Below are positions 1-32,471 of a DNA stretch of 55,804 nt, in pieces; within the stretch, counting starts at the first letter, position 1, and the number at the start of each line of letters is the position of its first letter. Made by a program: the position numbers and the translations under genes. The notes beneath the pieces are model-generated. The model ran no database searches and had not been told where the DNA came from. It worked only from the letters and a program-made list of their open reading frames with translations. This stretch comes from Candidatus Moraniibacteriota bacterium (lineage in GTDB: Bacteria; Patescibacteriota; Minisyncoccia; Moranbacterales; UBA1568): assembly GCA_023261695.1 (NCBI GenBank), contig JAHFON010000004.1:1-55804 (forward strand), read 5' to 3'.

Positions 1-2
1 TT

Positions 3-113
3 TGGAATACTCCCTATGAATGGTTAGAGTTTTACAATTTTGAAAGAATCCATCTTACTTTAAATGGATTAACTCCCCAAGAGAAACTGGAAAGTGTCAC
101 CATTAAAGGTTGA
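3..113 (+). mobile_element. 3' end of an IS transposase gene (rve/DDE integrase-type C-terminus), truncated by the window edge
   Basis: Frame 3 reads WNTPYEWLEFYNFERIHLTLNGLTPQEKLESVTIKG with stop TGA at 111-113. The YNxxRxHxxLxGxTPxE tail is the conserved C-terminal signature of IS3/IS481-type transposases. Only 36 codons are visible. Confidence 0.5.
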
Positions 114-134
114 CTATACGAAATTGCCGTACAA

Positions 135-857
135 CTATGCCTTGATCCATTCGAAAAACAAAGCGGTGGCTTGCCGCACTTCACGAAATTCATTTCCGTT
201 CACCCGCAGACGGACCAGCGATTCCAATTTGTTGAAGAGAAAAATGCGCATCAACTTGATCGCGCTCTCGCTTACCGGAAAAGTGTTTTGAACAGAATTT
301 ATATGCTCGCCAGCCAGCACTCCACCGGCGCTCGGACTGAAAAAATGCTGTTCGCCGGAGTGAAGTTTATCACCCGACACGACGCAAACTCCGGTTTCAA
401 TCATATATCCGAGCCGCGCAAAAAGCTGAAAAAGAAACCCTTCCGCCAAAATCAACGCTTTGTCTTTATTTTTCTTTCCGGCCAAATCGTCAGTCAACGT
501 GAGATATGTCGTAAGCAATTGAAACAATTCCGCGTCAGCCTCGTCCCATTCCACCAGCCGCTCAAACATATTCACCGTTTCCAACACGCGTTTCAGAATG
601 TCCGCATCGCTTCGCAGATGAACGAAGTTTTTTTCTGCCACGGCTCCGGCAATCTTGCCCGTACCCCTTCCCTTCACAACAATCACCAGTCCCTGCATCA
701 GAGTTTCCAGCTGTCCCGCCAATTTCGCCTCCTGTTTGCGCACCCCTTTGGCCACCAGTTGCACCTTGCCTTGCTCCAATGTGTACAGCATATACAAGCG
801 GTCGGTTTCTCCCACCTCTTTTTTTTTCAAAACAATGGCGTTATAGCGAAGTTCCAT
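135..857 (-). CDS. recO: DNA repair/recombination protein RecO
   Basis: 240-aa ORF with ATG at 857. The N-terminus MELRYNAIVLKKKEVGETDRLYMLYTLEQGKVQLVAKGVRK matches the RecO OB-fold pattern, and length and layout are typical. Confidence 0.8.
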   Translation of the reverse strand: MELRYNAIVLKKKEVGETDRLYMLYTLEQGKVQLVAKGVRKQEAKLAGQLETLMQGLVIVVKGRGTGKIAGAVAEKNFVHLRSDADILKRVLETVNMFERLVEWDEADAELFQLLTTYLTLTDDLAGKKNKDKALILAEGFLFQLFARLGYMIETGVCVVSGDKLHSGEQHFFSPSAGGVLAGEHINSVQNTFPVSESAIKLMRIFLFNKLESLVRLRVNGNEFREVRQATALFFEWIKA

Positions 858-3853: not shown

Positions 3854-3869
3854 ACACATATAAAAAATA

Positions 3870-4568
3870 TTAACTTCTCTCAACAGACATTTGAAGTCTG
3901 ATAAGATCTCGTACATCAAGAACTGTTATGTTTTTTTCTTGAATGAATTGCTCAGCGCCTATCGTCACGCCATTCAATGTAACCAAGAACGCCTCAACTA
4001 CATTTAGATGCTGCATAACCCCATATAAATCCCTGACTACACTCGGGCCAATCGGTTTCTTATAAGCTTTACATTGAACGATTGCTTTTTTTTCATCATT
4101 CCTAATATAAATATCCACGCCCCCATCACCAGAACCTCTTGTAACATCAGCCTGATACCCAACTTGCTTAAAAAGATGTGCCACCTCATGCTCAAATTTA
4201 TACCCATCAAGCGAAAACCAGAATTGCTCTTTTGTCCTTATAAACCATTCTTTATATTGTTCTACACTTTTTCTATAAGCTTGAATCTTTTTTTCTAGGC
4301 TTTTTAAATCATCGGTAAAGTAATGATTATTTAAAAAATATCGAGATATCGTACGAAACAGCCCCCAAAATAAAGCCGGGGCAATCCCTGATATATAAAA
4401 AAGCACAGTGGCTTCCCAATTAAAAAAATATAGAATGGTGGGAGCTAAAAGAATCAACGCCCATTTAGCGTACACCGAGGACATTTGTTCAATTTTTTCG
4501 TTTAGAGAATCAATCTTTTCAAAATCTCTTTGATCCAGATTATATTCTTGAACATCCGGTTTTTTCAT
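3870..4568 (-). CDS. Membrane-anchored Mrr-like restriction endonuclease domain protein (PD-(D/E)xK)
   Basis: The C-terminal half has the Mrr_cat pattern FEHEVAHLFKQVGY...GSGDGGVDIYI...AIVQCKAYK (E, D, QxK). The N-terminal half has hydrophobic spans (WALILLAPTILYFF, VLFYISGIAPALFWGLF) and a charged helical linker. Confidence 0.7.
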   Translation of the reverse strand: MKKPDVQEYNLDQRDFEKIDSLNEKIEQMSSVYAKWALILLAPTILYFFNWEATVLFYISGIAPALFWGLFRTISRYFLNNHYFTDDLKSLEKKIQAYRKSVEQYKEWFIRTKEQFWFSLDGYKFEHEVAHLFKQVGYQADVTRGSGDGGVDIYIRNDEKKAIVQCKAYKKPIGPSVVRDLYGVMQHLNVVEAFLVTLNGVTIGAEQFIQEKNITVLDVRDLIRLQMSVERS

Positions 4569-4644
4569 AAAACACTCTCGCTAAACTAATTTTCAGTTTG
4601 GCTATAACAACGAGGCAAATAAGAATGAACACATAGAAACTCGT

Positions 4645-5307
4645 TCATTCGACTTTCACTACCTGGCCATTTTCGAGACGTTTGAGACTATAACGATTCA
4701 GAAGCTCTTGCTCGATTTTCTTGTCGCCATGTTCTTGCCGCTTGATACGCTGGAACTTATCTGCCGCCGATAACGTCTGTTCGCTTTCCATCTTCGTCAG
4801 AAGCGATTTCTGCAGCCGATCAAAAAGAAAATTCAATTCTTTACATCGCAACTTCAAACAAACTACTGCTGGCAGATGCGGATCAAGCGGATAGAACGGC
4901 AGGCTTTCGATATCCATCCTCACTGAACTCCTGTGCCCCGTTCCTCCCACCTCTCTCTCCTCCATTTTCCCCGTTCCGCCCCTTTCTCCCATTATTCCCT
5001 TTAGCCCCACCAGTTCCGGATACATACCCTTCCAAATATCATCGCAATCCTCCTCCAGCTCTGAATTTGCTCCCATCGAAAATCCCAGGAAATCATAATA
5101 CTCTTTACTCGAATTGCGTTTCCATCCCTCAACGATATTCTGCTTCACAGAACGGGCAGAGCGATCCATCTGATCAGCGAGCGCAACCAAGGTTTTCGTT
5201 CTCGGGAACTGATGCGTCAGTCCGACGCAGTCCCATTGTAATTCCTCAGCCTTCTTGTACACCAAAAGTTCGCGGTATCCGTACGGTTTTCGAGTTGGTT
5301 TGATCAT
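4645..5307 (-). CDS. Four-helix-bundle protein (23S rRNA intervening-sequence protein / Avd-like family) with a Gly/Glu-rich insertion
   Basis: N-terminal pattern YRELLVYKKAEELQWDCVGLTHQFPRTKTLVALADQMDRSARSVKQNIVEGWKRNSSKEYYDFLGFSMGANSELE matches the family signature (FP...aDQ..RSa.Si..NI.EG). At 220 aa it is roughly twice the usual length, owing to an insert GIMGERGGTGKMEEREVGGTG and a C-terminal extension. Confidence 0.75.
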   Translation of the reverse strand: MIKPTRKPYGYRELLVYKKAEELQWDCVGLTHQFPRTKTLVALADQMDRSARSVKQNIVEGWKRNSSKEYYDFLGFSMGANSELEEDCDDIWKGMYPELVGLKGIMGERGGTGKMEEREVGGTGHRSSVRMDIESLPFYPLDPHLPAVVCLKLRCKELNFLFDRLQKSLLTKMESEQTLSAADKFQRIKRQEHGDKKIEQELLNRYSLKRLENGQVVKVE

Positions 5308-5385
5308 AAGCTAGGACAAAAGAGGCAAAGGGGAAGCAACGGGCGAAAAGGGAAGAATGGGTAAAAATCAAAGATGATAAATAAG

Positions 5386-5421
5386 AAAACAAAAAACCCT
5401 AACACAAAACTCGTGCTAAGG
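5386..5421 (-). terminator. Intrinsic terminator ending the 5390-5645 RNA candidate
   Basis: The minus strand reads CCUUAGCAC-GAGUUUU-GUGUUAGGG (9 bp including 2 G-U pairs), followed by UUUUUUGUUUU. Confidence 0.6.
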
Positions 5422-5645
5422 ACCCTGAACATAGTCGACGGGTGGTACCACCTTGCTTCGATTCGGCCAAAACCGAATCCTTATTTTATGCGCTGTCACG
5501 GGCGCTGTCCGCTTGTAGCGGATACCCGGCAGAGTCTACGGCCAAAAGGCTTTCTTTCTGCGGCTCGGCACGAGATACGTATAAGCGGATTTTCGTGCCG
5601 AAGGAGTGATATCTCCATACTTTGGAAGGGACTCCGCCATCACCT
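5390..5645 (-). ncRNA. Candidate structured non-coding RNA or long 5' leader, class unknown
   Basis: This 380-nt gap has no credible ORF. On the minus strand there is a promoter-like TTGATC (5681-5676), an 18-nt spacer and TACAAT (5657-5652). At least five local hairpins follow: CGGCACGA/TCGTGCCG (5566-5600), GATTCGG/CCGAATC (5460-5479), CCGC/GCGG (5509-5521), GCGC/GCGC (5490-5505), and the 12-nt palindrome GGTGGTACCACC (5441-5452). The element ends in a 9-bp stem plus U-tract intrinsic terminator (5386-5421). Confidence 0.5.
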
Positions 5646-5688
5646 TTCAAAATTGTATAATCACTATAACACAAAGATCAACGAATAA

Positions 5689-6252
5689 TCAATATTCCCA
5701 CACCACTTCCGTACACGAACCTTTCTTTGGATACCAGCCGGTGGCCGAGCGACCGGGAGCTTCGTTGGTCAAAATACCGTGCAACTGTTCCAGCGGATCA
5801 CCATGCGAAACAACAATCACTTTTTTTCCGGCATATTTTTCTCGCATATCATCAAGAAAACTTTTCAACCGACCGCGCATATCAATAAAACTTTCAATGC
5901 CGTCCGCCGGATCAGGACTGATGCGCTCTTCCGCGTCCGGATATTTTTTCAGAAGTTCCCGCTGGGCTTTTTCGTTAAATACGCCAAATCCCGCTTCACG
6001 TAAACGTTCATCAAATTTTACTTGCAATCCGGTTGCGGAAGCTATTATTTCCGAAGTTTCTTGGGTGCGCCGCAAGGGCGAACTGAAAATAACATCCGCA
6101 TCAACCCCAGAGAGGAACTTCGCGGTTTCCGCCGCTTGTTCCCGGCCGCGGGGCGTCAAAGAATACTTTTCAATTTCCGGCGAAGAATTAAGAATGGAAC
6201 GAATATTATTCTCCGCCTCTCCGTGTCTGACGAGATAAAATGTGATTTCCAT
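5689..6252 (-). CDS. Histidine phosphatase family protein (phosphoglycerate mutase-like)
   Basis: Contains the LVRHGEAENN catalytic RHG motif near the N-terminus and VVSHG later. The 187-aa length is typical of the family. Confidence 0.85.
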   Translation of the reverse strand: MEITFYLVRHGEAENNIRSILNSSPEIEKYSLTPRGREQAAETAKFLSGVDADVIFSSPLRRTQETSEIIASATGLQVKFDERLREAGFGVFNEKAQRELLKKYPDAEERISPDPADGIESFIDMRGRLKSFLDDMREKYAGKKVIVVSHGDPLEQLHGILTNEAPGRSATGWYPKKGSCTEVVWEY

Positions 6253-6261
6253 AAACCTGAA

Positions 6262-6408
6262 TTAGTGCGCGAAGCGATACACATCCGCGCTCGCCGCAAT
6301 AATAAAAAACAGCGCAACCAAACCGACTGTTTTCACCACAAAATAAACCAGCGCCTCGTCCCAACTCAATTTTCTTTTATATTTGTTTTTGTATTTGTGT
6401 TTGGACAT
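6262..6408 (-). CDS. Small (48 aa) single-pass membrane protein; below the ORF-track cutoff
   Basis: Hand translation gives MSKHKYKNKYKRKLSWDEALVYFVVKTVGLVALFFIIAASADVYRFAH. Its ATG (6408-6406) overlaps the TAA stop of the upstream aldolase-family gene as TAATG, which suggests translational coupling. It has a basic N-terminus followed by one hydrophobic helix. Confidence 0.5.
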   Translation of the reverse strand: MSKHKYKNKYKRKLSWDEALVYFVVKTVGLVALFFIIAASADVYRFAH

Positions 6409-7001
6409 TATATTTGCTTGAAAATATTCAGAAGAATATCACCCGCCTCATCTAAAGTTTTGCCCCAACTAACTATGCCTCCCTCGTGGCCGCCCATCAC
6501 AAGGATCTTGTTGTCGCCCGCGTTCAATCTTTCTAATATTTTTTTGATTTCGTCCACCATTTTCAGAGTTCCAAATTCCGCATTTTTATCCGTTGTGGGC
6601 ACTTGGTCCATAAGCTTCTCCCAGAGTTTCAAATTGTGAATATGGATCACCGCATTGGTTTCCGGCGCGCCTTCATAAATTATAGCGTGGGATAAAGATT
6701 CCGAGGATGCTTTAATCGGTCCCCTGCAAGTCAGGCTGTTTTTCGCGAAATCATAATCCTCCACCAGACAATAATGATTTTCATTGAGCTGATCCAAACC
6801 GCCGGTTCCCGAACCGGAAATTATAAAATTATTGCTTCTCTCCCTGATACTGATATTGCCAAAACCAATGCCGTCGCAAATTCCAATTAATCCCAAGTGA
6901 TGTAATTTCTGCCGCCACTCATTGATCTCGCTAAGCCTGACCATTGGGATTGGCTGGCTCTGTATCAGATGACAATCAAATTTAATAAGACCTTCGTCCA
7001 T
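6408..7001 (-). CDS. Class II aldolase/adducin-domain protein (MtnB-like dehydratase/aldolase family)
   Basis: The 197-aa ORF contains GNISIRE...FIISGSGTG...SSESLSHAIIYE...AVIHIH, the pattern of the class II aldolase/adducin N-terminal domain. It lies directly downstream of the MtnA-family gene. Confidence 0.7.
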   Translation of the reverse strand: MDEGLIKFDCHLIQSQPIPMVRLSEINEWRQKLHHLGLIGICDGIGFGNISIRERSNNFIISGSGTGGLDQLNENHYCLVEDYDFAKNSLTCRGPIKASSESLSHAIIYEGAPETNAVIHIHNLKLWEKLMDQVPTTDKNAEFGTLKMVDEIKKILERLNAGDNKILVMGGHEGGIVSWGKTLDEAGDILLNIFKQI

Positions 7002-8801: not shown

Positions 8802-9204
8802 GGGGTTGTTTAGTTTCGACAGGATGTACTTTCAAAATACGCAAGCCGACCTCGGTGGTATGGTCGCTAATCTCGCCATCACGATGATAAATGCAAATTT
8901 CATCACCAAAGCAAAGAACGCATTCGCGCAAGCGTTTGCCCCGTCTTTCGCTCCTGCTCTCGCCTAATTTACTTTAGCGAGTAGCCATCAGACTTCTGAT
9001 TCCCGGTAAGAAATCTCTGGTGCCATAATATCGGGACGACCGAAGAATTTATTTTTCTTTCTTCTTCCCAGTCGTATGCGAAAGGAAAAATTGCCAGAGC
9101 ATTTTGTTTGCTTTTTACCTCAGGCATTTACATAAAGCGGACTAGGCTTGTAGAATATTTTGAAAAAACATTTTTGGACATGGGTGCGATTCCCATCAAC
9201 TCCA
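8802..9204 (+). ncRNA. ssrA: tmRNA (SsrA)
   Basis: The 5' end is GGGGUUGUUUAGUUUCGACAGGAU. The 3' end is GGACAUGGGUGCGAUUCCCAUCAACUCCA, a T-arm plus acceptor strand. The acceptor stem GGGGUUG/CAACUCC includes the G3-U alanine identity pair. The tag ORF GCA...TAA (8893-8967) encodes ANFITKAKNAFAQAFAPSFAPALA. The 3' CCA is not encoded; the genome reads A-CAA after the stem. Confidence 0.92.
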
Positions 9205-9236
9205 CAAATTTTTTAGTTCGCAATCACAATTAAAAA

Positions 9237-19325: not shown

Positions 19326-20885
19326 TTAAGAACTAAAATCCAATCCGAACATGTCATGAAGCAGTTTTTCAACAATTGAGCGGTAATCTTCTATCTGTGG
19401 ATCAGTAATGTTCGGGGTTGCTCGCTGGTGTATCAGATCGCATCTCAATTTATAATAATGATTTATCTTCTGAATTGTCGCTTGATCAATGTTGATATGT
19501 TTTATTACCTCTCTTTCAACATCAATTCTATTTTCTGCGATATTTTTGAATGTTTGATTTCCGATATTCTTTTCATTTACCAAAAATTCTTTGTAAGCAA
19601 TTTCAATGGTACTATCTAAAATAATTAAACCGATTCGATTTTTTTGAGTTAAGGGAAGTTTTGAAAAAATATCCACGGCCATAATGCTTTCTAATAAGCC
19701 GGCTGTCCATGGTTTTTGAGCAACAATAGCGGCGTTTGCATTCGCAACTTTTTGATGCCACTTTTGTTTACTTGCCGGAGGGGTTGGAAGATAGCTTTTC
19801 GGAATGCTAGTTATTGTGTCTAATTTTTCAGCGACAACATGACCAGTTTTGTGCGGAAATACATTAATATCCCAGCTACCCTGCAAGCTACGAGAAACTT
19901 GGGCATATCTTTTTGTTACATCAATAATGCTTTGCCGGAGAGCCTGAAACACTGGGTGCTTTAAATTAATACCAGATTTACTACTGTCCCATGGCATATC
20001 TCGTGACTGCCCTTTAATATTTACGATGGTTCTTGCGAGAGAAATATTGTAATGAGGATTTCCAATCATACCAGATGAGAACCCCATTGAAAAATCGGTC
20101 AACGCACGGGCGACAAGTCGACTATTACAATACACGAAAACCCCATAGGAATTATCTGGATCCCCAGGATGATCAATTAAACCGGACAAAATCTCAACAT
20201 CCACCTTCCGATCTTCAATTGGAATTTGAGCCGTGAATTTTGTAGGATAAAGATTTGGAGGATATGACCATTGATCATCAAAATTAACTCCAGCTAACTT
20301 ATCGCCATTTACCTTAATTATGGCACCACGATCTAAAAATTTAGCGTATACTTCTGAAAGATGTTTTTTGAAGTTGGTTATTTCATCGGAGGTTAGCTGG
20401 ACTCTTAATTTATTCAGTTCGATCAAAGTAGTATATGGGCTTAACTCTGTTTGAGCTTCAGTATAAGGTAACTGCCAACTATGATCTTGGGCAATCCAGT
20501 GTTCATCAAATTTTACAGTAAAGGTTTTTGCTTTCTCAAATCTCGAATGAATCGCAATATTTTCAGCAAGAGCGATAACGGCTCGTTTACTACCGACGCC
20601 GAAATAACCAATGACATCATCACTGATTTCGTTGCTTGTTTTTCCCGGGCTAACGATGTGATCTAATTTTGATTCTTCAATTCCGCCTGCATTATCCTCT
20701 ATAGAAAGAGTTTGTTGTCTATCGTCAGCAACTATTTTTATTTCTAAGTCTGATCTTTTTCGTTTCGACCAAAGATCAATTGCATTATCAATTAACTCAC
20801 ATAAAGATCGTTTCAAGTCATACTCTGAAATGATTGACAAAAATATTCTTTTTTCTGGTGTTGCGTCTAGTATTTTCGAAGTCAT
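19326..20885 (-). CDS. GHKL-superfamily (MORC/MutL/HATPase_c_3-like) ATPase with C-terminal HEPN-like (Rx4H) domain
   Basis: Bergerat-fold motifs are present: E30-LIDN34-AID (N box), D64-NAGGI (G1) and G93-YFGVGSK (G2). The C-terminal roughly 100 aa is helical and carries YYKLRCDLIHQR (R481-x4-H486, codons 19445-19428), the HEPN RNase signature. The gene is AT-rich; the 60-nt line at 19441 has 16/60 G+C. Confidence 0.7.
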   Translation of the reverse strand: MTSKILDATPEKRIFLSIISEYDLKRSLCELIDNAIDLWSKRKRSDLEIKIVADDRQQTLSIEDNAGGIEESKLDHIVSPGKTSNEISDDVIGYFGVGSKRAVIALAENIAIHSRFEKAKTFTVKFDEHWIAQDHSWQLPYTEAQTELSPYTTLIELNKLRVQLTSDEITNFKKHLSEVYAKFLDRGAIIKVNGDKLAGVNFDDQWSYPPNLYPTKFTAQIPIEDRKVDVEILSGLIDHPGDPDNSYGVFVYCNSRLVARALTDFSMGFSSGMIGNPHYNISLARTIVNIKGQSRDMPWDSSKSGINLKHPVFQALRQSIIDVTKRYAQVSRSLQGSWDINVFPHKTGHVVAEKLDTITSIPKSYLPTPPASKQKWHQKVANANAAIVAQKPWTAGLLESIMAVDIFSKLPLTQKNRIGLIILDSTIEIAYKEFLVNEKNIGNQTFKNIAENRIDVEREVIKHINIDQATIQKINHYYKLRCDLIHQRATPNITDPQIEDYRSIVEKLLHDMFGLDFSS

Positions 20886-20900
20886 AAATTTGTATTGCGT

Positions 20901-21917
20901 TTACTCTTTTATTCGATATTCGCCCGATTCTAATTTAGACACAATTTCTCTAGTGTATACATTAAAGGTTGTAAACGCAGCACCTTTTAATGGCTCATCT
21001 TTTATTTTAAGAAACTTTTTCTTAATGTTTTTATCTACCCCTTTCACGTCATCAATGGTCTTTATGAATACATTTGGCTCATTGCGTAATAAGAACCACT
21101 CTTTATCAGTATCTTTGCTTTTATCCAACATCTCTAAATCCTGTCGTGTCATTTTAGGAAATAGATAGTAGAATTTTTTATCGTAGAAATAATACTTGGT
21201 GAGGAACATTTCGCCAACTGCAATATGGCCTGCTCGTTGAGACCCATCGGTAAAATTTCTTCTGCTTCTCCCAGCATATTTTATAACATAATTATCCTTT
21301 ATTATTGTTGATCTCTTTTTTGCAAACTCTTTCCAGTCTCCGTTGTAAAATTGCTGAAACTTTGCATTAAAAAACTCATGCATCTTTTCGAGGTATTCAT
21401 CCACATAAGCAGAAAATGCCTTCGGGTCGTGATATCGCTTGAGCAAATCCTTCACGACCGCCAGATCGTCGGTGATTAGATATTTACCTCTCTCTACCTT
21501 TGAAGCAAAGTAGGCCATGCCGAATAAATCTGGCTGGATTCTTTGTCTGCCTTTTTTGAGATAGTAAACGCCGACCACGCCGTTTTTCACGGCGCCAAGA
21601 GCGTGATGAAATCTCTGATATAAAGCATTTCCGCCGGAATTCCTGTTGAGTGCATCGGTGCCTTCGAGAGCAAGCACTGGTTTCTTATCGATTTCTTTGC
21701 CGTTCAATCCGTCAACCCACTTCTCGTCGACGTACCACGCCGCATCACACGAACCGTAGGAGACACCATTAAACCCGAATGTGAGGCCGCCTTCGGAGAA
21801 CGGCTTTTGGTCCTCGTTACTGCTCTGAGGGAAAATGCGAAGCTTTACGCCACTCGTCTCGTGTCCGAGGTAGTCGATGATTTCTCTTTTTATTATTTCG
21901 TCACTTGAGTAGGCCAT
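20901..21917 (-). CDS. Hypothetical protein (338 aa), possible second nuclease/specificity subunit of the RM core
   Basis: A clean ATG lies 1 nt after the upstream stop (TAA-T-ATG). No motif is confidently recognised; the candidate acidic cluster is CDAAWYVDE...PVLALEGTDAL. The C-terminal half is Lys-rich. G+C drops sharply inside the ORF near 21,400. Confidence 0.6.
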   Translation of the reverse strand: MAYSSDEIIKREIIDYLGHETSGVKLRIFPQSSNEDQKPFSEGGLTFGFNGVSYGSCDAAWYVDEKWVDGLNGKEIDKKPVLALEGTDALNRNSGGNALYQRFHHALGAVKNGVVGVYYLKKGRQRIQPDLFGMAYFASKVERGKYLITDDLAVVKDLLKRYHDPKAFSAYVDEYLEKMHEFFNAKFQQFYNGDWKEFAKKRSTIIKDNYVIKYAGRSRRNFTDGSQRAGHIAVGEMFLTKYYFYDKKFYYLFPKMTRQDLEMLDKSKDTDKEWFLLRNEPNVFIKTIDDVKGVDKNIKKKFLKIKDEPLKGAAFTTFNVYTREIVSKLESGEYRIKE

Positions 21918-21918
21918 A

Positions 21919-23001
21919 TTATAGGGATTTAATTTTTTCTAATATTGCCTCGGTTTCAAGCCCAAGGACGAAACTGACGAGGTCCGACTCTTTGTTTATT
22001 TCCTCGTCCTTAACTTCAAGATAGAACCGTTTGAGCTCATCGTTCGTAAGATTTGCAATCAGATAGAACTTTATGTAATTTCCGATCCAGACAGTGTATT
22101 TCTCACGGGACAAGGAATTCTTTGGTTCGTATTTTGCTTCAGGAAGTGTGATCTTTATCTTGTAATCGGAATCAAGCGTGATCAGACCGAAATAATCCTT
22201 TGACGGTTTTGCTTTGGTCGGGCAGATTTCAAAGCCCCGATCAAAGAGTCCGGTATTGAGATATTTCTCCAATTGCTTGGTCATGACGACTGTCCCGGTC
22301 TTTGCTTCACCTACGATGAAATCGTGCGTTACGTGTCCTGCATCAGACTTGACTTGATTTTTGAAATTCCGGATGAGCGCCAGCTCAATCATATGGAAAC
22401 CCTCGCTCGGCAGATATCCGTAGTTGCTTATTTTGGTGATAATTTCGCCGAGTCCATAACCAGCAAAATCCGGCGATCCAATGGCGTGGGCAAGCGGAAT
22501 CTGGTTCTCGACAATGAAGCCGAGATGTCTGAAATATTCACCGGCAAGGTACTCCATGAACGGTTCCATGCCGTTGCCTTGCTTGCTGGTCTCGATTCTT
22601 TGGATAATGTAGTTTTCACGGTTCTTGAGCGAGACGAATTTTGCCCGAAGCATCTCATTCAGTTTTTCTTCGGATTTAAACTCGACAGGAACGATCAATT
22701 TGTCGCCCTCAAAAAGATATTCCTTTGCACGGGAGAGAATAAAAGGTGTGTTCTTTAAAACGCCATTGTCAAAAATACCCGAAACGAATTTGTAGTTGAA
22801 GGCGTTGTAGAAAAGCTTCATTAAACCCTTGGGAGTGAACGGATAAATTGGGTTCTCAAGATATCCGGCACCGGTGATGCTACTGTAGATAAAAGCATCT
22901 TTGGCTGGCATCTTCACGGCCTTGCCCAGTTCAGTCTCGACAATCTCAAAACTAAAATTGGCTTTAAATATTTTGAAAAAATCTTCTTTGTGTATTTCCA
23001 T
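21919..23001 (-). CDS. PD-(D/E)xK-type nuclease, candidate restriction endonuclease
   Basis: The layout is core helix, PD, then ExK: EPFMEYLAGEYFRHLGFIVENQ ... IGSPDFAGYG ... HDFIVGEAKTG. The ORF-track start at 23094 is a TTG lying inside the upstream gene. I use ATG 23001 (MEIHKEDFF), 4 nt after the upstream TAA. Confidence 0.65.
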   Translation of the reverse strand: MEIHKEDFFKIFKANFSFEIVETELGKAVKMPAKDAFIYSSITGAGYLENPIYPFTPKGLMKLFYNAFNYKFVSGIFDNGVLKNTPFILSRAKEYLFEGDKLIVPVEFKSEEKLNEMLRAKFVSLKNRENYIIQRIETSKQGNGMEPFMEYLAGEYFRHLGFIVENQIPLAHAIGSPDFAGYGLGEIITKISNYGYLPSEGFHMIELALIRNFKNQVKSDAGHVTHDFIVGEAKTGTVVMTKQLEKYLNTGLFDRGFEICPTKAKPSKDYFGLITLDSDYKIKITLPEAKYEPKNSLSREKYTVWIGNYIKFYLIANLTNDELKRFYLEVKDEEINKESDLVSFVLGLETEAILEKIKSL

Positions 23002-23005
23002 ATGT

Positions 23006-24619
23006 TTAAATGCGTTCAAATTTAAATAATGCTTGTTGAGCAAACTTGTTGCTTTTCTGGGCGGTATCGTGTAAAAGTTTGGTGATGCGCTCAATATTTA
23101 GCTTTTCATGGTTTGCTACCTGAGCTCCGTCAAAAATTTTACTGATCACCATACCAACAAAAAGATCGTACCCCTTATTGAGATTAAAAAGCTTCCCGTT
23201 GTGCTCGCCCAAGTATTCAGTAATTTCGTTGGCAACCTCTTCAGGTGAGACAGTCTTTTTATTTGATATTTTTGTTTCCTTTTTTCGGTTCTTAAACGTG
23301 ACGTAGAAATCGGACTTGGGAGAGAACTTCGCCCAATTTTTGTTATAAGGACTGCCGAACGTGTCGTAAGACGAGATGTCAACAAGTTCCATGCCGCTGT
23401 CTCTGATTAGCTCTGCTAAGCTAACCCAAATCCTCAAGTCTTTATTCTGGAATGCGAGCGTGAAATAAGCATCTTTCTTAAGAACCCTCGAAACCTCGCT
23501 GATAAAAGATGCCAGCTGGTTGTTATATTCGTTCAAACCTTTGTTCTGAACTGGATTGATGATGACTTCTTTCTCGATATCAAATTCTTTTTCAAGCCAG
23601 CAATTCCAGATGTACGATAGCTCTGAATATTGGATCGTATCGCCGTAAGGCGGATCGGTGATGAGATAGTCCACACTTCCCGGATCAATCTCGATCATTT
23701 TGAGCGACGATTTGTTATAAACTTTCGCTTCTTGATCCTTGATTTTGTTTCGGTCGGCTCTTTCAGCAACAACCTCTTTGGCCGTCTTTACGTTGTTGAA
23801 TCGATCCATAAATCTCCACCAGACGTTCTCCTCGATAAAGTCATCAGGAATCCAAAAATTATTTACACCAAGAGGACGGACGTTTTCAGCCTTGAGCTTG
23901 CTGACGTGAAGCAGTGTGTTGGTAAAAGCCAACATGAACAGATTGCGATGCTTGAGTGGCAAATCGTGAATAGCGTTGTAGAGCATGGCCAGAGACAGAA
24001 TGTTGCGTTTCGTGAACATATCCGACACCTTCTTCACGCCCTTATAAGAAAAACGGTCTTTGTAGAATTTATTCGGAAAATTCTTGTCCGGATACTTTAA
24101 ATCTTTGGGGAAGCGTACCGACGGCTCGAGGTCATTCTTTGAAAGAGTGACTTTCCGTTTGTTTCGGAAATTCTCGTCTGCGATGACTGCGTTATAGTCT
24201 TTACTATTTTTCTTGCCCAAAATCGTATAGAGGATGTACTTATCCTTCGTCTTGTAGATCTTCATTATTTTTTCGCTGACAGCTTTTTCGATTTTTCCGA
24301 ACTCCTCGTCAAATGATTCCGGATTATGTTTTATATCCAAAGAATTTTTAGCCAGAAAAGCGGCGAACGGATTGAGGTCGTAGCCGACGAATTTACGGCC
24401 AGCGAGCACAGACTGCAAACCGATGATTCCACTACCGCAAAACGGGTCCAAGACAAGATGACCTTTCTTGGAATATTTATCGACGTATCGATCAATCACG
24501 AACCATGGCTTGCGTGACCAGTACTTGTGGAGTTTTGCAAGCTTAGAATATCTGCGATCGTGATCAATGCTGTTCACGTCAACGAGATTATTTACGATTT
24601 TTGGCAATGTTAACGACAT
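23006..24619 (-). CDS. DNA methyltransferase, DPPY type (N6-adenine/N4-cytosine family), with a large insert between motifs I and IV
   Basis: HKYWSRKPW...LVLDPFCGSGIIG (AdoMet motif I) lies at about residue 60. DYLITDPPYGD (catalytic motif IV) lies at about residue 325. The roughly 260 aa between them is the presumed target-recognition domain. Confidence 0.85.
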   Translation of the reverse strand: MSLTLPKIVNNLVDVNSIDHDRRYSKLAKLHKYWSRKPWFVIDRYVDKYSKKGHLVLDPFCGSGIIGLQSVLAGRKFVGYDLNPFAAFLAKNSLDIKHNPESFDEEFGKIEKAVSEKIMKIYKTKDKYILYTILGKKNSKDYNAVIADENFRNKRKVTLSKNDLEPSVRFPKDLKYPDKNFPNKFYKDRFSYKGVKKVSDMFTKRNILSLAMLYNAIHDLPLKHRNLFMLAFTNTLLHVSKLKAENVRPLGVNNFWIPDDFIEENVWWRFMDRFNNVKTAKEVVAERADRNKIKDQEAKVYNKSSLKMIEIDPGSVDYLITDPPYGDTIQYSELSYIWNCWLEKEFDIEKEVIINPVQNKGLNEYNNQLASFISEVSRVLKKDAYFTLAFQNKDLRIWVSLAELIRDSGMELVDISSYDTFGSPYNKNWAKFSPKSDFYVTFKNRKKETKISNKKTVSPEEVANEITEYLGEHNGKLFNLNKGYDLFVGMVISKIFDGAQVANHEKLNIERITKLLHDTAQKSNKFAQQALFKFERI

Positions 24620-24620
24620 G

Positions 24621-25643
24621 TTATTTCTTTTGGAAAATTAAGCAGTAGTGATGAAGGATGTTGCTTGCCCATGCGGCCGGATAACCATATGGCGCAAGAC
24701 CAACCTTATCCTGTATCCAAATTTTCTCATCTTTAAGCACGTACTTTTTCGAAAGAATTCGTGCTAAGTCCCAGGCCAATGGATACATCGTGCCTTCTTT
24801 TTTTACGTTCTTCACAATGACCACCAAGTAACTGCCGTTCTTGAGTAGGTCGTAGATGTCAAAATAAATCTTGGCGACTCTTTCAAGGAATACTTCGTAA
24901 TTATCGACATTGCCCAAGTCCTCTTCGTGCTCTGAGTAATTAACATCAAAGCCGTTCTTGGTGCGCTTAGTGCGGAAATCCTTCGTGCTTCGGTTTAGAA
25001 CATTCCAATACGGAGGCGACGAGATAGAGAAGGCCATCTTCGGCAAATCGAGTTTTTTGATGTTCTCGGCATTCTCGTTGAAAATACTCTTTTTGAATTC
25101 GGGAGTTCTCTTCAGTGACAGATCGTAGTATTTTTTGTTTAGTTCGATTCCATACCCGATGCGGCCAGTACGCTTGCAAGCAACAAGGGTACTTCCAATG
25201 CCACAGAATGGGTCCAAAACATTCTCTCCTTTTTTTGTGAAAAATTTCACAAAGTCCTCAATCATTGTTGGGGAGTATGTCGCCGGATGATCCTGCGTGT
25301 TCGATGAAATTTCTCTCTCTTCCTTTAAATCTTTCTGTAGAGCATTGAAAATAAACCAACTACAGCTGAATTTTATCCACTCTTTGCCCGTCAGTTCATT
25401 CAACGGATTGGAAAGGTCATAAGCACCATCTTCGGGGTTGATCAGGATCGCATTTGCATTATCAAGCTCGCCGCCGGGGTTATATAAAGCGACTTCATCC
25501 CATCTTTCCAAAAAATGATCTGGAATCAGATTCTTTTTGGTTTTTAGAAATTCAGCGAGCTTCTTTTTTGCTTGCTTGTTTTTTTTCTCGTCCGGAACTG
25601 GGACGACCTGCTTTTTATCTTTGAGGTAAAAATAATTTTTCAT
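24621..25643 (-). CDS. DNA methyltransferase, SPPY type (N4-cytosine/N6-adenine family), motif I before motif IV
   Basis: DHPATYSP...VLDPFCGIGST (motif I) is followed by FSISSPPYWN (motif IV), with a C-terminal IWIQDK...HHYCLIFQK block. The stop and next start are spaced TAA-C-ATG. Confidence 0.85.
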   Translation of the reverse strand: MKNYFYLKDKKQVVPVPDEKKNKQAKKKLAEFLKTKKNLIPDHFLERWDEVALYNPGGELDNANAILINPEDGAYDLSNPLNELTGKEWIKFSCSWFIFNALQKDLKEEREISSNTQDHPATYSPTMIEDFVKFFTKKGENVLDPFCGIGSTLVACKRTGRIGYGIELNKKYYDLSLKRTPEFKKSIFNENAENIKKLDLPKMAFSISSPPYWNVLNRSTKDFRTKRTKNGFDVNYSEHEEDLGNVDNYEVFLERVAKIYFDIYDLLKNGSYLVVIVKNVKKEGTMYPLAWDLARILSKKYVLKDEKIWIQDKVGLAPYGYPAAWASNILHHYCLIFQKK

Positions 25644-25654
25644 ATACTAACAAG

Positions 25655-26317
25655 TTATATTAGATTTCCATCCTTGAAGCTAAAATAGCTGTTTCTCGTA
25701 ACAATAATATGATCAATCACTTCTATACCCAAAATTAAACCCGCTTCTGTTAGCTGTTTGGTTGTAGCCAAGTCTTCCTCTGACGGTTCTGGGTCTTCAG
25801 AGGGATGATTGTGGGCAATAATAACCTGCGCAGCCAGATGCCGAACAGCTGGCTCGAATACTTCTCGCGGATGGACAAGATTGGTGTTAAGTGATCCGAC
25901 CGAAACGACCTCCCGTTTAATCTCTTGATTTCTGGAATCCAAAAAGAAAATAACGAAATGTTCTTTTTTATTGTCACGAATATCTTTGAGTTCGTTCCAA
26001 ACATCCTGGGGGGATAAAAGCAGAATTGATTTCTTGTTTTGTAAATGCCGACGACCAAGTTCAAAGCAGGCGACAATCTCGGAGGCCTTTGCGCTACCAA
26101 GACCAAATGTATTTTTCAATTCTTTGACTGAAGCCTTAGCCAAACCTGCACCGCTGAATTTCCTTAAAATCTTACCGGATAACTCAACAACATTGATGCC
26201 CTCGCTTCCTGTTCGTAAAAGAATCGCCAAAAGTTCCGAATCCGAAAGCCGCTCGGGACCGTACTTTTCGAGTTTCTCTCTTGGCCTATCAACTTTTGGC
26301 AAATCTTTTATTTTCAT
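25655..26317 (-). CDS. radC: RadC-family JAB/MPN domain protein
   Basis: The N-terminus reads RPREKLEKYGPERLSDSELLAILLRTGSEG (HhH region). The JAMM motif AHNHPSEDPEPSEEDLATTKQL is present. The 220-aa length is canonical. Confidence 0.85.
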   Translation of the reverse strand: MKIKDLPKVDRPREKLEKYGPERLSDSELLAILLRTGSEGINVVELSGKILRKFSGAGLAKASVKELKNTFGLGSAKASEIVACFELGRRHLQNKKSILLLSPQDVWNELKDIRDNKKEHFVIFFLDSRNQEIKREVVSVGSLNTNLVHPREVFEPAVRHLAAQVIIAHNHPSEDPEPSEEDLATTKQLTEAGLILGIEVIDHIIVTRNSYFSFKDGNLI

Positions 26318-26321
26318 AAAT

Positions 26322-27593
26322 TTACTTTACTAAGTCTTCAAGCAACCATTTCCATAGTGGCTTGAACTGTATGGTTTTTCCATCCTTCTTGACTTCGCGC
26401 TCTTCGTCCCATGTCAGCACGGTAAGTTTATTAACTTTCAATTCCTCGCTTGCTTCAAATAATGCTTTTGTCTCACGTTGTTCCACGTCGGAATTTCTCA
26501 AATCGTAGCAAACTTGAATAAGTTCAGATGTCTGGTAACCATTACGGATTGCAAAGTCAACCTCTCGACCGTTGCGAGTCTTGTAATAAAACAATTCCCG
26601 GTTCGGCTCAAAACATTTTTTCACCAGTTCGGTAAAAACCAGATTCTCCATGAGTTTGCCATTGTCGGGAGAATGTTGAACAGCCTTAGATGTGACGAAG
26701 CCGTTATCAACCGTGTAAATCTTTTTTGGCGAGCGGAGACGTTCACCGGCTTTTGCGGAAAAACCGGAGAGAGAAAATACAACGTACGCTTCTTCAAGAT
26801 ATTTAAGATACCGCTCAAGGGTCACGCCGCTTTTAAATTTCAAAATATTCGCGAGCTTCCGGAAACTGTATTGATTAGAAACATTATTTATCAAGTATGA
26901 GCCGAGCTGGTCTATTTGCTCGGAAAAACGAACCTTGTGGCGCTTTACAACGTCCTTAAATAACAATGCGTCAAAGAGTACATCCAAATAACCCCGCGGA
27001 TGTTGATTTTTTATCACCACTTCCGGAAAGCCGCCGAACGCCATGTATTGTTCGAGCAACTTCAACAGTTCTGATTTTTGATCAAGCTGGGAAAAGTTTT
27101 TAGCTTTGAGAAATTCGTGAAAATCGAATGGCAATATTTCTATCGGCAGATGTCTTCCGGTCAAATGGGTCGCAAGTTCCATCGACAAAAGATTGGCGTT
27201 TGATCCGGTTAGCACGAGATTATACCCTCCTCGATGCAGACGGTTGGCAAACAACTCCCAGCCCTTTAGGTTTTGTATTTCATCAAACAAAACAAACTTA
27301 GTATCTCCGTAGAACCGATGCAATTCGTCCGTTAGTGCATATAAGTCTAATTTCTCTCCCACCAAACCCGGGTCATCAAAATTGAAGTAGGCAAATTTTT
27401 GGTCTTTGAGCATCATGAGAGAAAAAACCGATTTGCCGGCGCGACGTGGACCGAGAATGACTTTTATCAAATCTGAAGACATCCACTTGGGCGCATCTTT
27501 CAGCTTCGTCCTCTCCACATAATCCAAACCAGCTAGGGCTTCTTTCTCCCCGTTTTGCTTGGATATTAGCTCTTGTAACTTGCTTTTTTGCAT
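26322..27593 (-). CDS. AAA-family ATPase with DUF4143-type C-terminal domain
   Basis: Walker A is ILGPRRAGKSVF and Walker B is FVLFDEIQN. The C-terminal portion (EVDFAI...) is typical of the archaeal/CPR ATPase-DUF4143 family. It is the first gene of the co-directional block. Confidence 0.75.
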   Translation of the reverse strand: MQKSKLQELISKQNGEKEALAGLDYVERTKLKDAPKWMSSDLIKVILGPRRAGKSVFSLMMLKDQKFAYFNFDDPGLVGEKLDLYALTDELHRFYGDTKFVLFDEIQNLKGWELFANRLHRGGYNLVLTGSNANLLSMELATHLTGRHLPIEILPFDFHEFLKAKNFSQLDQKSELLKLLEQYMAFGGFPEVVIKNQHPRGYLDVLFDALLFKDVVKRHKVRFSEQIDQLGSYLINNVSNQYSFRKLANILKFKSGVTLERYLKYLEEAYVVFSLSGFSAKAGERLRSPKKIYTVDNGFVTSKAVQHSPDNGKLMENLVFTELVKKCFEPNRELFYYKTRNGREVDFAIRNGYQTSELIQVCYDLRNSDVEQRETKALFEASEELKVNKLTVLTWDEEREVKKDGKTIQFKPLWKWLLEDLVK

Positions 27594-28667: not shown

Positions 28668-29405
28668 TCAACTAATCCGCGCCAATTCATCACGCAAAAG
28701 CATCAGCATTTCCCGCTTCAGCGTTTTCCGTACGCGAGAAAACGTATCATAGGGAAGAAGCACGTTCAGGTCTTGATTTATCACCTTGTCCGTCACATGG
28801 GTCTCAATAAATTTAATCAGGTCAGCAAAAAATATGTCTGTATCTTTGCCTGTGCGCTCTCTGATTACCTCTTCGTTATACCTAAGTCCATTCAGAAAGA
28901 AATGACGAATGTCATATACATCACGTCCGGCAATTGACTCGTGCTTATCATAGCGATCCATAAGCGCAACAAGTTTATTAGCTAGCATAGTGTCTGGTGT
29001 TTGACAAAAAATGATGCGGTCAATTTCAGAAAATCTCCGCGCTTCATAACGATTTGATTTCGGAGGCGGAAATGTAGCGTCCACTTTAAGCGTATTTCGT
29101 TCGCCCTCTTTCGCTTCATACTTCAAAAAGTATTGAAGCGCAACTTTACTCTGGTCTCGCACTATAAGCGAAAGATTCCGAAAAATTATCTCCATCCGGC
29201 GGCGCGTCTCTGGAATATCTTTTTTTTCCCCCGTAAAATCAAAGTCAAGATCTACAGAAAAGCGGTCAAGAAGTCCAAGCATCGCAGCGCATGTTCCTCC
29301 TTTGAACGCAATTCTACTCGCAATAAAAGCGTCATCGCTTATCCCTGTAAGCGTTCGGAATAGCCATGCTTTATGAATTGCGTCTTTTGGGTTTGGAAGA
29401 ATCAT
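28668..29405 (-). CDS. AbiEii/AbiGii-family nucleotidyltransferase toxin (type IV TA / abortive infection)
   Basis: FKGGTCAAMLGLLDRFSVDLDFDF is the hallmark NTase motif of the AbiEii (DUF1814) family. It sits directly downstream of an AbiEi-like gene. Confidence 0.8.
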   Translation of the reverse strand: MILPNPKDAIHKAWLFRTLTGISDDAFIASRIAFKGGTCAAMLGLLDRFSVDLDFDFTGEKKDIPETRRRMEIIFRNLSLIVRDQSKVALQYFLKYEAKEGERNTLKVDATFPPPKSNRYEARRFSEIDRIIFCQTPDTMLANKLVALMDRYDKHESIAGRDVYDIRHFFLNGLRYNEEVIRERTGKDTDIFFADLIKFIETHVTDKVINQDLNVLLPYDTFSRVRKTLKREMLMLLRDELARIS

Positions 29406-29416
29406 GGCAGTTGTTT

Positions 29417-30067
29417 CTATATTCGCTGGGTATATCGTTCTGGGGTAAGCGGATACCCGACGTGCTCTTGCAAGGATTTTACTTTTTCCCAGTCAACAAG
29501 AGCGGCGCCATCAAGATAAATATGGCGGTGAAAATACAGGATGTCGGCAACGGCGCGCTCGACAGATGCTTTGCGAACACCGTTAACCTCCGTCACAATC
29601 CCGTCAGATTGATATAAAAACTTATCAGCAAGTTTGCGCGAAAGGTAGCGGCTATCCCCGACAGAAAAATGTTTAGTCGCCATCCCCACCAAAGTCACGG
29701 CGGAAAGCGTTTGCTGGATGATTCCATTCTCAATAAGGATTGTCTCCGTGCTCACATACGCATACCCGTGAAGCGCCTTGATACCAAGAAGAAGCCGATC
29801 AACTTCTCCAATCGGTTTGATAGCATAAAATCCTTTATAGATACGGAACAAAAGCCCCTGCCGTACATATCGCTTGAGCGTGGTATAAAGCGTGTTGCTG
29901 TTTTGGATTCCCCACAAGTTCGCCAGGTCTTTCGTATGAAAAATCATCTCTCCAATTTTTGCTAAATCAGAAAACCGCTTCAAATATTGGCTTTTTGACC
30001 CAACCTTTACGCCTATGCTTCTATTTGTGATTGTTTTATCTGTACTCATAAGTACAGGATAAATCAT
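29417..30067 (-). CDS. AbiEi-family antitoxin/transcriptional regulator
   Basis: The N-terminal wHTH-like block FHTKDLANLWGIQNSNTLYTTLKRYVRQGLLFRIYKGFYAI is typical of AbiEi. It is paired with AbiEii with an 11-nt gap. Confidence 0.75.
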   Translation of the reverse strand: MIYPVLMSTDKTITNRSIGVKVGSKSQYLKRFSDLAKIGEMIFHTKDLANLWGIQNSNTLYTTLKRYVRQGLLFRIYKGFYAIKPIGEVDRLLLGIKALHGYAYVSTETILIENGIIQQTLSAVTLVGMATKHFSVGDSRYLSRKLADKFLYQSDGIVTEVNGVRKASVERAVADILYFHRHIYLDGAALVDWEKVKSLQEHVGYPLTPERYTQRI

Positions 30068-32033: not shown

Positions 32034-32471
32034 ATGAAAAACTTCGAAAGACCGGAAATTGGTACAAAGAAATCTAAAAAGCCTGTTGATAGTGGAAAAG
32101 AAAAACAAGAACAGACAAGTTTTAAAATCCTGATTGTGGATGATCAAGCTGGTCTTTATAGTTTCGGGAGAAATAAAAATGTCATACTGGCTGAAAATAC
32201 CACAGAGGCGGAACAGCACCTTAAATCTGGCGGATTTGATGTTGTACTATTGGATGGACACCTTGACCAAAATGATGTTTTTGAGAATGGTCCGGATGCG
32301 CTTACGCATTGGATAGAGGAAGGGGTAAGTCTCCCTCCAGTTTTTATGATGTCTGCCGATGAAAAAATGCAACAGAAAGGCATTGAAGCTGGAGCGAAAG
32401 GAGCTATCAAAAAATCTCTTCTTCATTCAGGAGACATAGCAGAGATAGAAAAAGCTGTAAAAGCATTGTAA
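32034..32471 (+). CDS. Stand-alone response-regulator receiver (REC/CheY-like) domain protein
   Basis: KILIVDDQ (acidic pocket), DVVLLDGHL (phospho-acceptor Asp context), PPVFMMSAD and GAKGAIKK fit the REC fold. There is no output domain and no histidine kinase in the window. Confidence 0.75.
   Translation: MKNFERPEIGTKKSKKPVDSGKEKQEQTSFKILIVDDQAGLYSFGRNKNVILAENTTEAEQHLKSGGFDVVLLDGHLDQNDVFENGPDALTHWIEEGVSLPPVFMMSADEKMQQKGIEAGAKGAIKKSLLHSGDIAEIEKAVKAL

Follow-up and report, generated by a model that had tools for sequence, protein, structure and literature searches.

A predicted GHKL-S5-HEPN protein behind restriction-modification genes in Candidatus Moraniibacteriota, a candidate ATP-gated defence RNase

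GHKL ATPases that carry an S5 domain were defined as the paraMORC1-5 families of restriction-modification (R-M) systems by Iyer et al. in 2008, who described a restriction endonuclease (RE) fold, TIR and HxH domains as their C-terminal effectors (PMC2292703). Anantharaman et al. reported in 2013 that HEPN domains of the Ymh family are fused to paraMORC C-termini in R-M neighbourhoods, and proposed that these fusions are functional analogues of PrrC and RloC (PMC3710099). The best experimental precedent for GHKL-gated effectors is VcSduA, a paraMORC3 protein of Shedu type I-D in which both the GHKL residue E27 and the nuclease are needed for phage defence (PMC12137116). Here, we analysed a gene for a protein of 519 amino acids (aa), termed GHKL-HEPN, in a DNA stretch of 55,804 nucleotides (nt) from a Candidatus Moraniibacteriota bacterium (assembly GCA_023261695.1, contig JAHFON010000004.1, positions 1 to 55,804), referred to below as the window. 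The protein very probably consists of three parts, an N-terminal GHKL ATPase, an S5-like middle domain and, at the C-terminus, a HEPN domain, and its sequence suggests that it is most likely a self-contained anti-phage toxin encoded at the end of an R-M operon.

The architecture is not new in kind, since GHKL(paraMORC)-HEPN fusions in R-M neighbourhoods were described in 2013. The present family resembles the paraMORC-Ymh fusions in the order GHKL-S5-HEPN, in the R-M context of a part of its loci, in its sporadic mobile distribution and in the predicted logic of an ATPase-regulated RNase, and both groups are known from computational prediction. They differ in the HEPN domain, which here is nearest to HEPN_RiboL-PSP, a distinction drawn with family hidden Markov models. 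Ymh (PF09509/TIGR02391) matched none of 39 family members in Pfam at E<=1, and gave no match in NCBIfam either. VcSduA is likewise a single-gene system that joins an N-terminal GHKL domain and a clamp-like middle domain to a C-terminal nuclease effector, but its effector is a PD-(D/E)xK DNase (DUF4263) that protects without host killing, whereas a HEPN RNase is predicted here (PMC12137116). PrrC and RloC resemble the predicted protein in having a C-terminal HEPN RNase under the control of an N-terminal NTPase, in a link to R-M systems and in a suicidal back-up role in defence. However, their ATPase is of the ABC/Rad50-like P-loop type and their HEPN domains fall into different families; PrrC also has one specific type Ic R-M partner, whereas GHKL-HEPN genes stand beside many unrelated R-M types or none. 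GHKL-HEPN would be a functional analogue of PrrC/RloC only, and is not a member of that group.

Three further groups share single parts of the protein. By sequence, the C-terminal 90 residues, with the Rx4H helix among them, come closest to HEPN_RiboL-PSP (PF18735; AbiD/AbiF-related clade), but the present family scores below its threshold (at most 26.8 against 28.4 bits) and has neither an L-PSP domain nor a ParB operon. Eukaryotic MORC2, MORC3 and MORC4 and Hsp90/TRAP1 possess the same GHKL plus S5-like ATPase module, and the S5 motif found here resembles the MORC motif 'YHNNRLI'; unlike them, the present protein has a HEPN domain and no CW, coiled-coil, chromatin-reader or Hsp90 C-terminal domain. 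Sacsin likewise has Hsp90-like GHKL-S5 modules together with a HEPN domain at its C-terminus, but it is a eukaryotic protein of 4,579 aa with UbL and DnaJ domains, and its HEPN domain is of the partly non-catalytic HEPN-T type. No family of PADLOC-DB v2.0.0, which includes Shedu, MzaB, Hma and PrrC-like families, matched at E<=0.01, and the NCBIfam model of MzaB gave 22.6 bits against a cutoff of 850. Public records label family members 'ATP-binding protein' or 'hypothetical protein', and full-text literature searches found no paper on this GHKL-HEPN family. We file the family outside PF18735, Ymh, Shedu, PrrC/RloC and sacsin. The gene is a solid candidate defence gene, with a design principle that has been in the literature since 2013.

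Domain architecture and residue conservation

Sequence profiles assign the N-terminal part of the protein to the GHKL ATPases far beyond chance and above the gathering scores. Pfam HATPase_c_3 matched residues 22-147 with 51.7 bits (cutoff 25, E=1.2e-13), and HATPase_c matched with 34.3 bits (cutoff 26.4, E=3.4e-8). The three ATP-binding boxes that the earlier note had read at the N-terminus were borne out by translation of the gene (Table 1). Across 74 homologues, E30, D33, N34, D37, D64 and G67/68, and likewise G93, F95, G96, G98, K100 and R101, were 97-100% conserved, and the N-terminal strap was also highly conserved (P10, K12, R13, S17, I18, Y22). This near-complete conservation of the GHKL motifs indicates that the family looks ATPase-competent. 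In PHROGs, the sole match was an unannotated GHKL family, phrog_20521, over residues 2-194.

The full-length AlphaFold model had a mean predicted local distance difference test score (pLDDT) of 85. Hsp90/TRAP1 headed the Foldseek list obtained with this model, and about 360-410 columns aligned to the N and M domains of TRAP1/Hsp90 and to the MORC2 ATPase, with E about 1e-12 and, for MORC2, TMt 0.50. When the family profile was compared with PDB sequences, MORC4 (9e-7) and MORC3 (1.3e-4) ranked first, above Hsp90; a search of PDB with the single protein sequence gave no match. In the same profile search, the family motif YGVFxYCNxRLI aligned to FGIMMYHNNRLI in the S5 region of MORC4/MORC3, and Pfam Morc6_S5 was matched below threshold by 2 of 39 homologues. 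The S5-like domain also contains an invariant MPWxSSK, in which K303 is a candidate for the lysine contacting the gamma-phosphate in GHKL+S5 enzymes. The protein thus has both the GHKL and the S5 domain that mark the MORC/paraMORC group, and its C-terminus is not the RE-fold, TIR or HxH domain of paraMORC3-5 according to Pfam and Foldseek. The earlier note had described a GHKL ATPase fused directly to a HEPN domain. Both domains do occur in one protein; the direct fusion does not hold, as the S5-like domain lies between them.

The C-terminal domain was modelled separately with AlphaFold2 (AF2), reaching a pLDDT of 95.2. The model consists of helix 1 (392-409), helix 2 (415-438), two short insert helices, helix 3 (468-486), a loop and helix 4 (495-513); D424, S425, K432 and E433 are carried on helix 2, and R481 and H486 close helix 3. 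HEPN domains are defined by an Rx4-6H motif ending helix 3, an acidic residue on helix 2 and an insert that separates helix 2 from helix 3 (PMC3710099). The modelled helix order and the position of the motif match this definition, which supports a HEPN fold. R481 and H486 had been expected on the helix-4 face; the model puts both at the end of helix 3 instead, as in all HEPNs, and their exposure was judged from secondary-structure position.

Among the top 50 PDB matches of the HEPN model in Foldseek, 29 were HEPN proteins, and those with a probability of at least 0.7 were HEPN domains without exception, whereas non-HEPN matches had template modelling (TM) scores of about 0.2-0.3. The structure 2hsb matched with TM 0.64/0.68 (probability 0.99) and the sacsin HEPN domain 3o10 with TM 0.60-0.62. 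Further HEPN matches were 4nqf, the HepT toxins 7bxo, 5yep and 6m6u, 1wol, 2q00 and Csm6 (5yjc), together with TT1696, TM0613 and MtlR/YggD. Comparison with viral structures in BFVD was uninformative. At the sequence level, Pfam HEPN_RiboL-PSP was matched below threshold by 7 of 39 homologues at E<=1, over residues of about 420-510, equal to positions 100-186 of the 191 in the profile; the best homologues scored 26.8 and 26.5 bits, with E down to 5.6e-6. In the protein itself, the only Pfam match of the C-terminal 131 residues at E<=10 was bPH_2, which was rejected as spurious.

R481 and H486, numbered correctly by the earlier note in the 519-aa translation, showed no substitution in 39 homologues with identities as low as 46%. 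In a set of 74 full-length homologues, reaching down to 35% identity, R481 was kept in 72 and H486 in 68, and on helix 2 D424 was kept in 71 and E433 in 66. The R and H content of the protein would by chance give 0.66 Rx4H and about 2 Rx4-6H matches, and there is a second match, at R458, which is unconserved. Because chance matches are expected, the Rx4H string alone is weak and not significant; the meaning of R481/H486 comes from conservation and fold. The AF2 topology, the Foldseek matches and the Pfam matches of homologues agree with the HEPN reading of the C-terminus. The earlier note had named two findings that would count against this reading, a C-terminus of another fold and a lack of conservation at R481/H486; the domain has the predicted HEPN fold and both residues are conserved.

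Table 1. Features of the GHKL-HEPN gene and of the other genes discussed in the window
Feature	Nucleotides	Residues	Strand	Basis or remark
GHKL-S5-HEPN gene, complete	19326..20885		-	519 aa; stop codon 19326-19328; open reading frame (ORF) list and translation
N-terminal strap and GHKL (Bergerat-fold) ATPase domain	20331..20885	1-185	-	Pfam, conservation
ELIDNAID (motif I)	20775-20798	30-37	-	
DNAGGI (motif II)	20679-20696	64-69	-	
GYFGVGSK (motif III)	20586-20609	93-100	-	
S5-like middle (transducer) domain	19734..20330	186-384	-	Foldseek, profile search
Invariant MPWxSSK (K303)	19977-19997		-	Within S5-like domain
HEPN domain (predicted)	19329..19733	385-519	-	AF2 model, Foldseek, Pfam matches of homologues
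Helix-2 motif D424-S425...K432-E433	19587-19616		-	Within HEPN domain
KLRCDLIHQR		479-488	-	R481-x4-H486 at 19428-19445, end of helix 3
Small acidic ORF, 97 aa	18978-19271		-	Starts 54 nt downstream of GHKL-HEPN gene
Upstream same-strand module	20901..25643		-	Ends 15 nt before GHKL-HEPN start; context, no obligate partner
Orphan ORF, 338 aa	20901-21917		-	
Orphan ORF, about 360 aa	21919-23001		-	Likely true start ATG 23001
N6/N4 DNA methyltransferase, 537 aa	23006-24619		-	Pfam and PADLOC MTase_II
N6/N4 DNA methyltransferase, 340 aa	24621-25643		-	Pfam and PADLOC MTase_II
RadC (JAB) gene region	25655-27593		-	RadC directly upstream of methyltransferases
AbiEi antitoxin/AbiEii toxin pair	28668-30067		-	
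Orphan ORF, 593 aa	30235-32016		+	
Small receiver-domain protein	32034-32471			After 593-aa ORF
Transfer-messenger RNA gene	8802-9205		+	

Distribution, gene neighbourhoods and related architectures

At 90% identity, the family falls into at least 425 clusters, nearly all of them full-length proteins of about 517 aa, and among 185,579 species representatives it is present in about 103. Its bacterial hosts are scattered over Proteobacteria, Bacteroidota, Acidobacteriota and Planctomycetota; hosts in the candidate phyla radiation (CPR) include Moranbacteria (84% identity) and Saccharibacteria, and archaeal hosts include Methanosarcinaceae, Thermoplasmatales, Bathyarchaeia and Micrarchaeota. The family is very rare among sequenced plasmids and phages.

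Peptide patterns served to retrieve the 80 loci compared here, which do not form an unbiased sample; neighbouring ORFs were called mechanically, and methyltransferases (MTases) were detected by short motifs, which is a crude criterion. Clustering of 605 neighbouring ORFs revealed no conserved partner gene, the commonest neighbour family being present at 8 of the 80 loci, indicating that the GHKL-HEPN gene is self-contained. The R-M genes of the window recur at none of the other GHKL-HEPN loci. Together with its different codon composition, this indicates that the gene is an independently mobile cassette. The recurring neighbours were defence or modification genes. Methyltransferase neighbours were of the N6/N4, Dam and Dcm types, and endonuclease neighbours were BglII, EcoRV, NgoFVII-like, MutH-like and HNH enzymes, with Vsr in addition; sets of EcoRV/Dcm/Vsr and of BglII/Dam adjoin the gene at some loci. 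In a subset of Bacteroidota, the neighbours were of the Dnd type (DndD-like, DndE-HerA, a DndB-HEPN_Swt1 fusion and Mrr). TIR, SIR2, Abi_C and toxin-antitoxin pairs also occurred, and one locus had a relaxase, type IV coupling protein and integrase element beside the gene. An ORF with an MTase motif lay within three genes on either side at 21 of the 80 loci, and Dnd genes were present at about 8 more. Besides the window, 5 of about 10 other close relatives had R-M neighbourhoods, and many loci had none by the same motif criterion.

Among the closest relatives, GHKL-HEPN is the final same-strand gene after mutually unrelated type II R-M modules. It follows two N6/N4 MTases and two orphan ORFs after 15 nt in the window, a RadC-Dcm fusion, an NgoFVII-like restriction endonuclease (REase) and Vsr after 1 nt at locus L009, an EcoRI-type MTase and GmrSD_N/HNH after 29 nt at locus L012, and RhuM-Fic/DOC, an N6/N4 MTase and a MutH-like REase after 23 nt at locus L014. 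The last of these (2602-6941 of LBYD01000002.1, Candidatus Moranbacteria) is the closest genomic relative, with 84% identity, and its array matches the R-M layout with multiple toxins that the 2013 survey ascribes to PrrC-like HEPNs (PMC3710099). The cassette appears to land preferentially in, or to stay at, the 3' ends of R-M operons.

When all of 1.84 billion cluster representatives were scanned with HMMER, the HEPN-domain profile matched only 361 proteins. Besides GHKL fusions and fragments, these include a second architecture of about 240 aa, in which an N-terminal HEPN domain is followed by a winged helix-turn-helix (wHTH)-like domain of about 100 aa without a Pfam match; examples are P0184, P0185, P0191, P0192, P0196, P0200, P0210 and others, as well as locus L094 (2652-3359). 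G396, N416, R417, D424, E428, R453, R481 and H486 are invariant in GHKL-HEPN and HEPN-wHTH proteins alike. The conservation of the R/H dyad without a GHKL module argues for catalysis over packing specific to GHKL proteins. A split system was also considered, and the HEPN-wHTH relatives were checked for a separate adjoining GHKL gene; none lay beside them.

A subclade of six members (L069, L070, L072, L080, L084, L087) has Y or F in place of H486 and has lost the helix-2 motif. Neighbour clustering recovered five of these six loci, and in those five and at plasmid locus L102 the gene adjoins a divergent ABC ATPase (AAA_21/AAA_15 type, 720-773 aa) and a second protein, annotated 'endonuclease', of about 331-334 aa. 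This His-less subclade and its neighbours may be a distinct multi-gene system. At L102 (Rhizobium leguminosarum, CP050515.1), the GHKL gene is annotated as two coding sequences and appears split. More distant HATPase_c_3 proteins of 441-776 aa were found at loci L097-L101, on haloarchaeal plasmids, in the Pseudomonas filamentous phage PfAC20 and on Microvirga and Deinococcus plasmids, next to Dam/Dcm methyltransferases, MmeI and DptF or DrmA-type helicases. In PfAC20 (L098) and Microvirga (L100), a putative O-methyltransferase gene directly follows the GHKL gene; Methyltransf_35 was confirmed by Pfam for the PfAC20 protein, and the Microvirga one is assigned by annotation only. These nearest GHKL relatives from outside the family were checked for a HEPN domain of the Ymh or a related type, and had no Pfam C-terminal domain and no match to the HEPN profile of the family.

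Composition and surrounding genes in the window

The GHKL-HEPN gene has 36.7% G+C and 29% G+C at third codon positions (GC3). The corresponding values are 41-43% and 45-52% for the two orphan ORFs and two MTases upstream, and the flanking genes mnmA and dusB have 48-49% G+C. The deviant GC3 and the patchy distribution of the family indicate that the gene is most likely of foreign origin and horizontally acquired. The gene had already been noticed as more AT-rich than the MTase genes upstream, from counts of 16/60 and 31/60 G+C in two lines of sequence. The difference is real and both counts are exact, but the second line, at 21421, lies inside the 338-aa orphan ORF and not in an MTase gene.

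Neither of the two orphan ORFs directly upstream matched Pfam, NCBIfam, PHROGs or PDB. The layout of the upstream module looks like that of a type II/IIS R-M system equipped with a pair of methylases, in which the orphan ORFs would presumably form a putative two-subunit endonuclease. On the other side of the GHKL-HEPN gene, the small acidic ORF of 97 aa was considered as an antitoxin and rejected, as it had no family match and no counterpart at the other 79 loci; it is probably not an antitoxin for GHKL-HEPN.

Next to the RadC gene lies an AAA_14/DUF4143 ATPase gene, with a PADLOC match at 4e-103 to the candidate system PDC-S01. At L009 (2742-4478), RadC is fused to a Dcm methyltransferase, suggesting a recurring link between RadC and R-M systems. 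The AbiEi antitoxin and AbiEii nucleotidyltransferase toxin form a type IV toxin-antitoxin (abortive infection) pair. This pair is located just beyond dusB, and the segment of 18.9-30 kb is therefore a composite defence island broken by a housekeeping gene. The 593-aa ORF (36% G+C) matched nothing in Pfam, NCBIfam or PHROGs, and its AT-richness suggests another foreign gene. The transfer-messenger RNA gene encodes the tag peptide ANFITKAKNAFAQAFAPSFAPALA.

Proposed mechanism and alternative explanations

GHKL+S5 ATPases such as MutL, GyrB, Hsp90 and MORC dimerise via their N-terminal domains upon ATP binding, and in HEPN RNases two Rx4-6H motifs together make up a composite active site across the dimer interface. 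Hsp90 and MutL also have a constitutive C-terminal dimerisation domain, and the HEPN domain sits at the same place in the present protein. Since the HEPN active site is formed across a dimer and GHKL dimerisation is driven by ATP, ATP-gated RNA cleavage is the most likely mechanism, and we favour an ATP-gated defence RNase with moderate confidence. The GHKL and S5-like domains would form an ATP-driven dimerising clamp, and the HEPN domain is predicted to be a metal-independent endoribonuclease with R481, H486 and the helix-2 residues D424/E433 as catalytic residues. Either an infection-related cue sensed by the clamp or the loss of a restraining interaction would act on the ATPase cycle, which would govern how two HEPN domains pair or become exposed and would in this way produce an active nuclease. 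The HEPN pair may then cleave cellular and/or phage RNA, leading to translation arrest and abortive infection. Beside R-M or Dnd modules, the protein would provide a second, RNA-level layer of defence, encoded by mobile cargo that would have been acquired separately and often appended last after unrelated type II R-M or Dnd modules. No antitoxin-like neighbour is conserved, which fits control of the predicted nuclease by the ATPase module of the same protein.

Several observations weigh against an ATP-gated defence RNase, for which RNase activity, ATP gating, trigger and defence role are all predicted properties. The 519-aa protein itself has no Pfam HEPN match, its homologues stay under the gathering score of HEPN_RiboL-PSP (best 26.8 against 28.4 bits), and the HEPN-domain profile found no match among PDB sequences. 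For the HEPN domain, Foldseek gave weak E-values (0.25-2), as small helical bundles usually do, and no PADLOC family matched the protein. The subclade lacking H486 shows that the HEPN fold can be retained where the catalytic dyad is lost, no modification system adjoins the gene at about two thirds of the loci by the crude criteria used, and gating by dimerisation is proposed by analogy.

A more specific version of this mechanism would make the protein a guardian in the style of PrrC/RloC. The nuclease would be silenced by contact with the adjoining MTase-endonuclease complex, and a phage anti-restriction factor disabling that complex would free a nuclease for the anticodon or other RNA. Such a role was proposed for the paraMORC-Ymh fusions by Anantharaman et al. 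(PMC3710099). It would agree with the position of the gene as the last one, 1-29 nt after differing type II R-M modules (the window, L009, L012 and L014), and with L014, which reproduces the RhuM-DOC, R-M and ATPase-HEPN layout of PrrC-like HEPNs. However, the R-M neighbours are mutually unrelated (N6/N4, Dcm/NgoFVII, EcoRI-MTase/HNH and MutH-like), no neighbour is conserved, and many loci have no R-M genes nearby, for example P0095 on a mobilisable element, P0071 and P0033. The varied R-M types and the loci without R-M make a specific protein-protein hold less likely, and a shared location in defence islands would look alike. We regard the specific guardian as possible but doubtful.

In a broader form, an ATP-gated HEPN RNase would be a universal plug-in guardian that can be attached 3' of nearly any type II R-M or Dnd operon, whether bacterial, CPR or archaeal, and that fires when the first-line system is overwhelmed or inhibited. 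Its MORC-like clamp would sense a generic signal, for instance DNA that is unmethylated or has been cut, and no specific partner protein would be involved. If true, this would tie a DNA-sensing MORC clamp to RNA-level suicide, a coupling that is not known from any GHKL protein. We consider such universality unlikely.

The protein could also act on DNA as an R-M accessory, its GHKL-S5 clamp looping or remodelling DNA for the adjoining endonuclease and its HEPN fold serving only for dimerisation or nucleic acid binding. DNA looping was proposed for MORC/paraMORC proteins in R-M operons by Iyer et al. in 2008 (PMC2292703), the C-terminal placement of the domain is that of the constitutive dimerisation domains of Hsp90/MutL, and non-catalytic variants are found in the subclade without the catalytic His and in the HEPN domain of human sacsin. 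Against this, R481, H486 and the acidic/polar residues of helix 2 are near-invariant down to 35% identity and also in proteins without GHKL, and a mere dimerisation surface would not need such conservation of R and H. The gene is also present at many loci without R-M genes, and we judge a purely DNA-level role to be quite improbable.

That the protein is a housekeeping chaperone, such as a mini-sacsin or an HtpG-like protein, or a histidine kinase in signalling is very improbable, for although Hsp90/TRAP1 head the Foldseek list, sacsin too joins Hsp90-like modules to HEPN, and weak NCBIfam matches were obtained to the sacsin ATP-binding domain (32 bits, cutoff 50) and to sensor kinases, the family is rare, patchy, of foreign composition and found on mobile elements and in defence islands, has no HisKA/DHp, receiver, DnaJ or client-binding domain in Pfam, and is closer to MORC4 and MORC3 than to Hsp90 by sequence profile. 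A sensor histidine kinase was rejected on the N-terminal position of the GHKL domain, the lack of a HisKA-type Pfam match and NCBIfam kinase scores of 15-24 bits against 430-800. A sacsin ancestor was rejected as well, since MORC outranks sacsin/Hsp90 by profile and the sacsin NCBIfam match is below threshold.

If active, the predicted ATP-gated RNase would be a compact single-gene defence candidate that current defence catalogues have missed. The family would then offer a tractable case for the 2013 prediction that GHKL/paraMORC ATPases can gate HEPN RNases, in parallel to PrrC/RloC and VcSduA, and an active member would help explain the coupling of MORC-type clamps to effectors. The recurrent place of the gene after unrelated R-M operons provides a natural test between layered back-up defence and co-located cargo.

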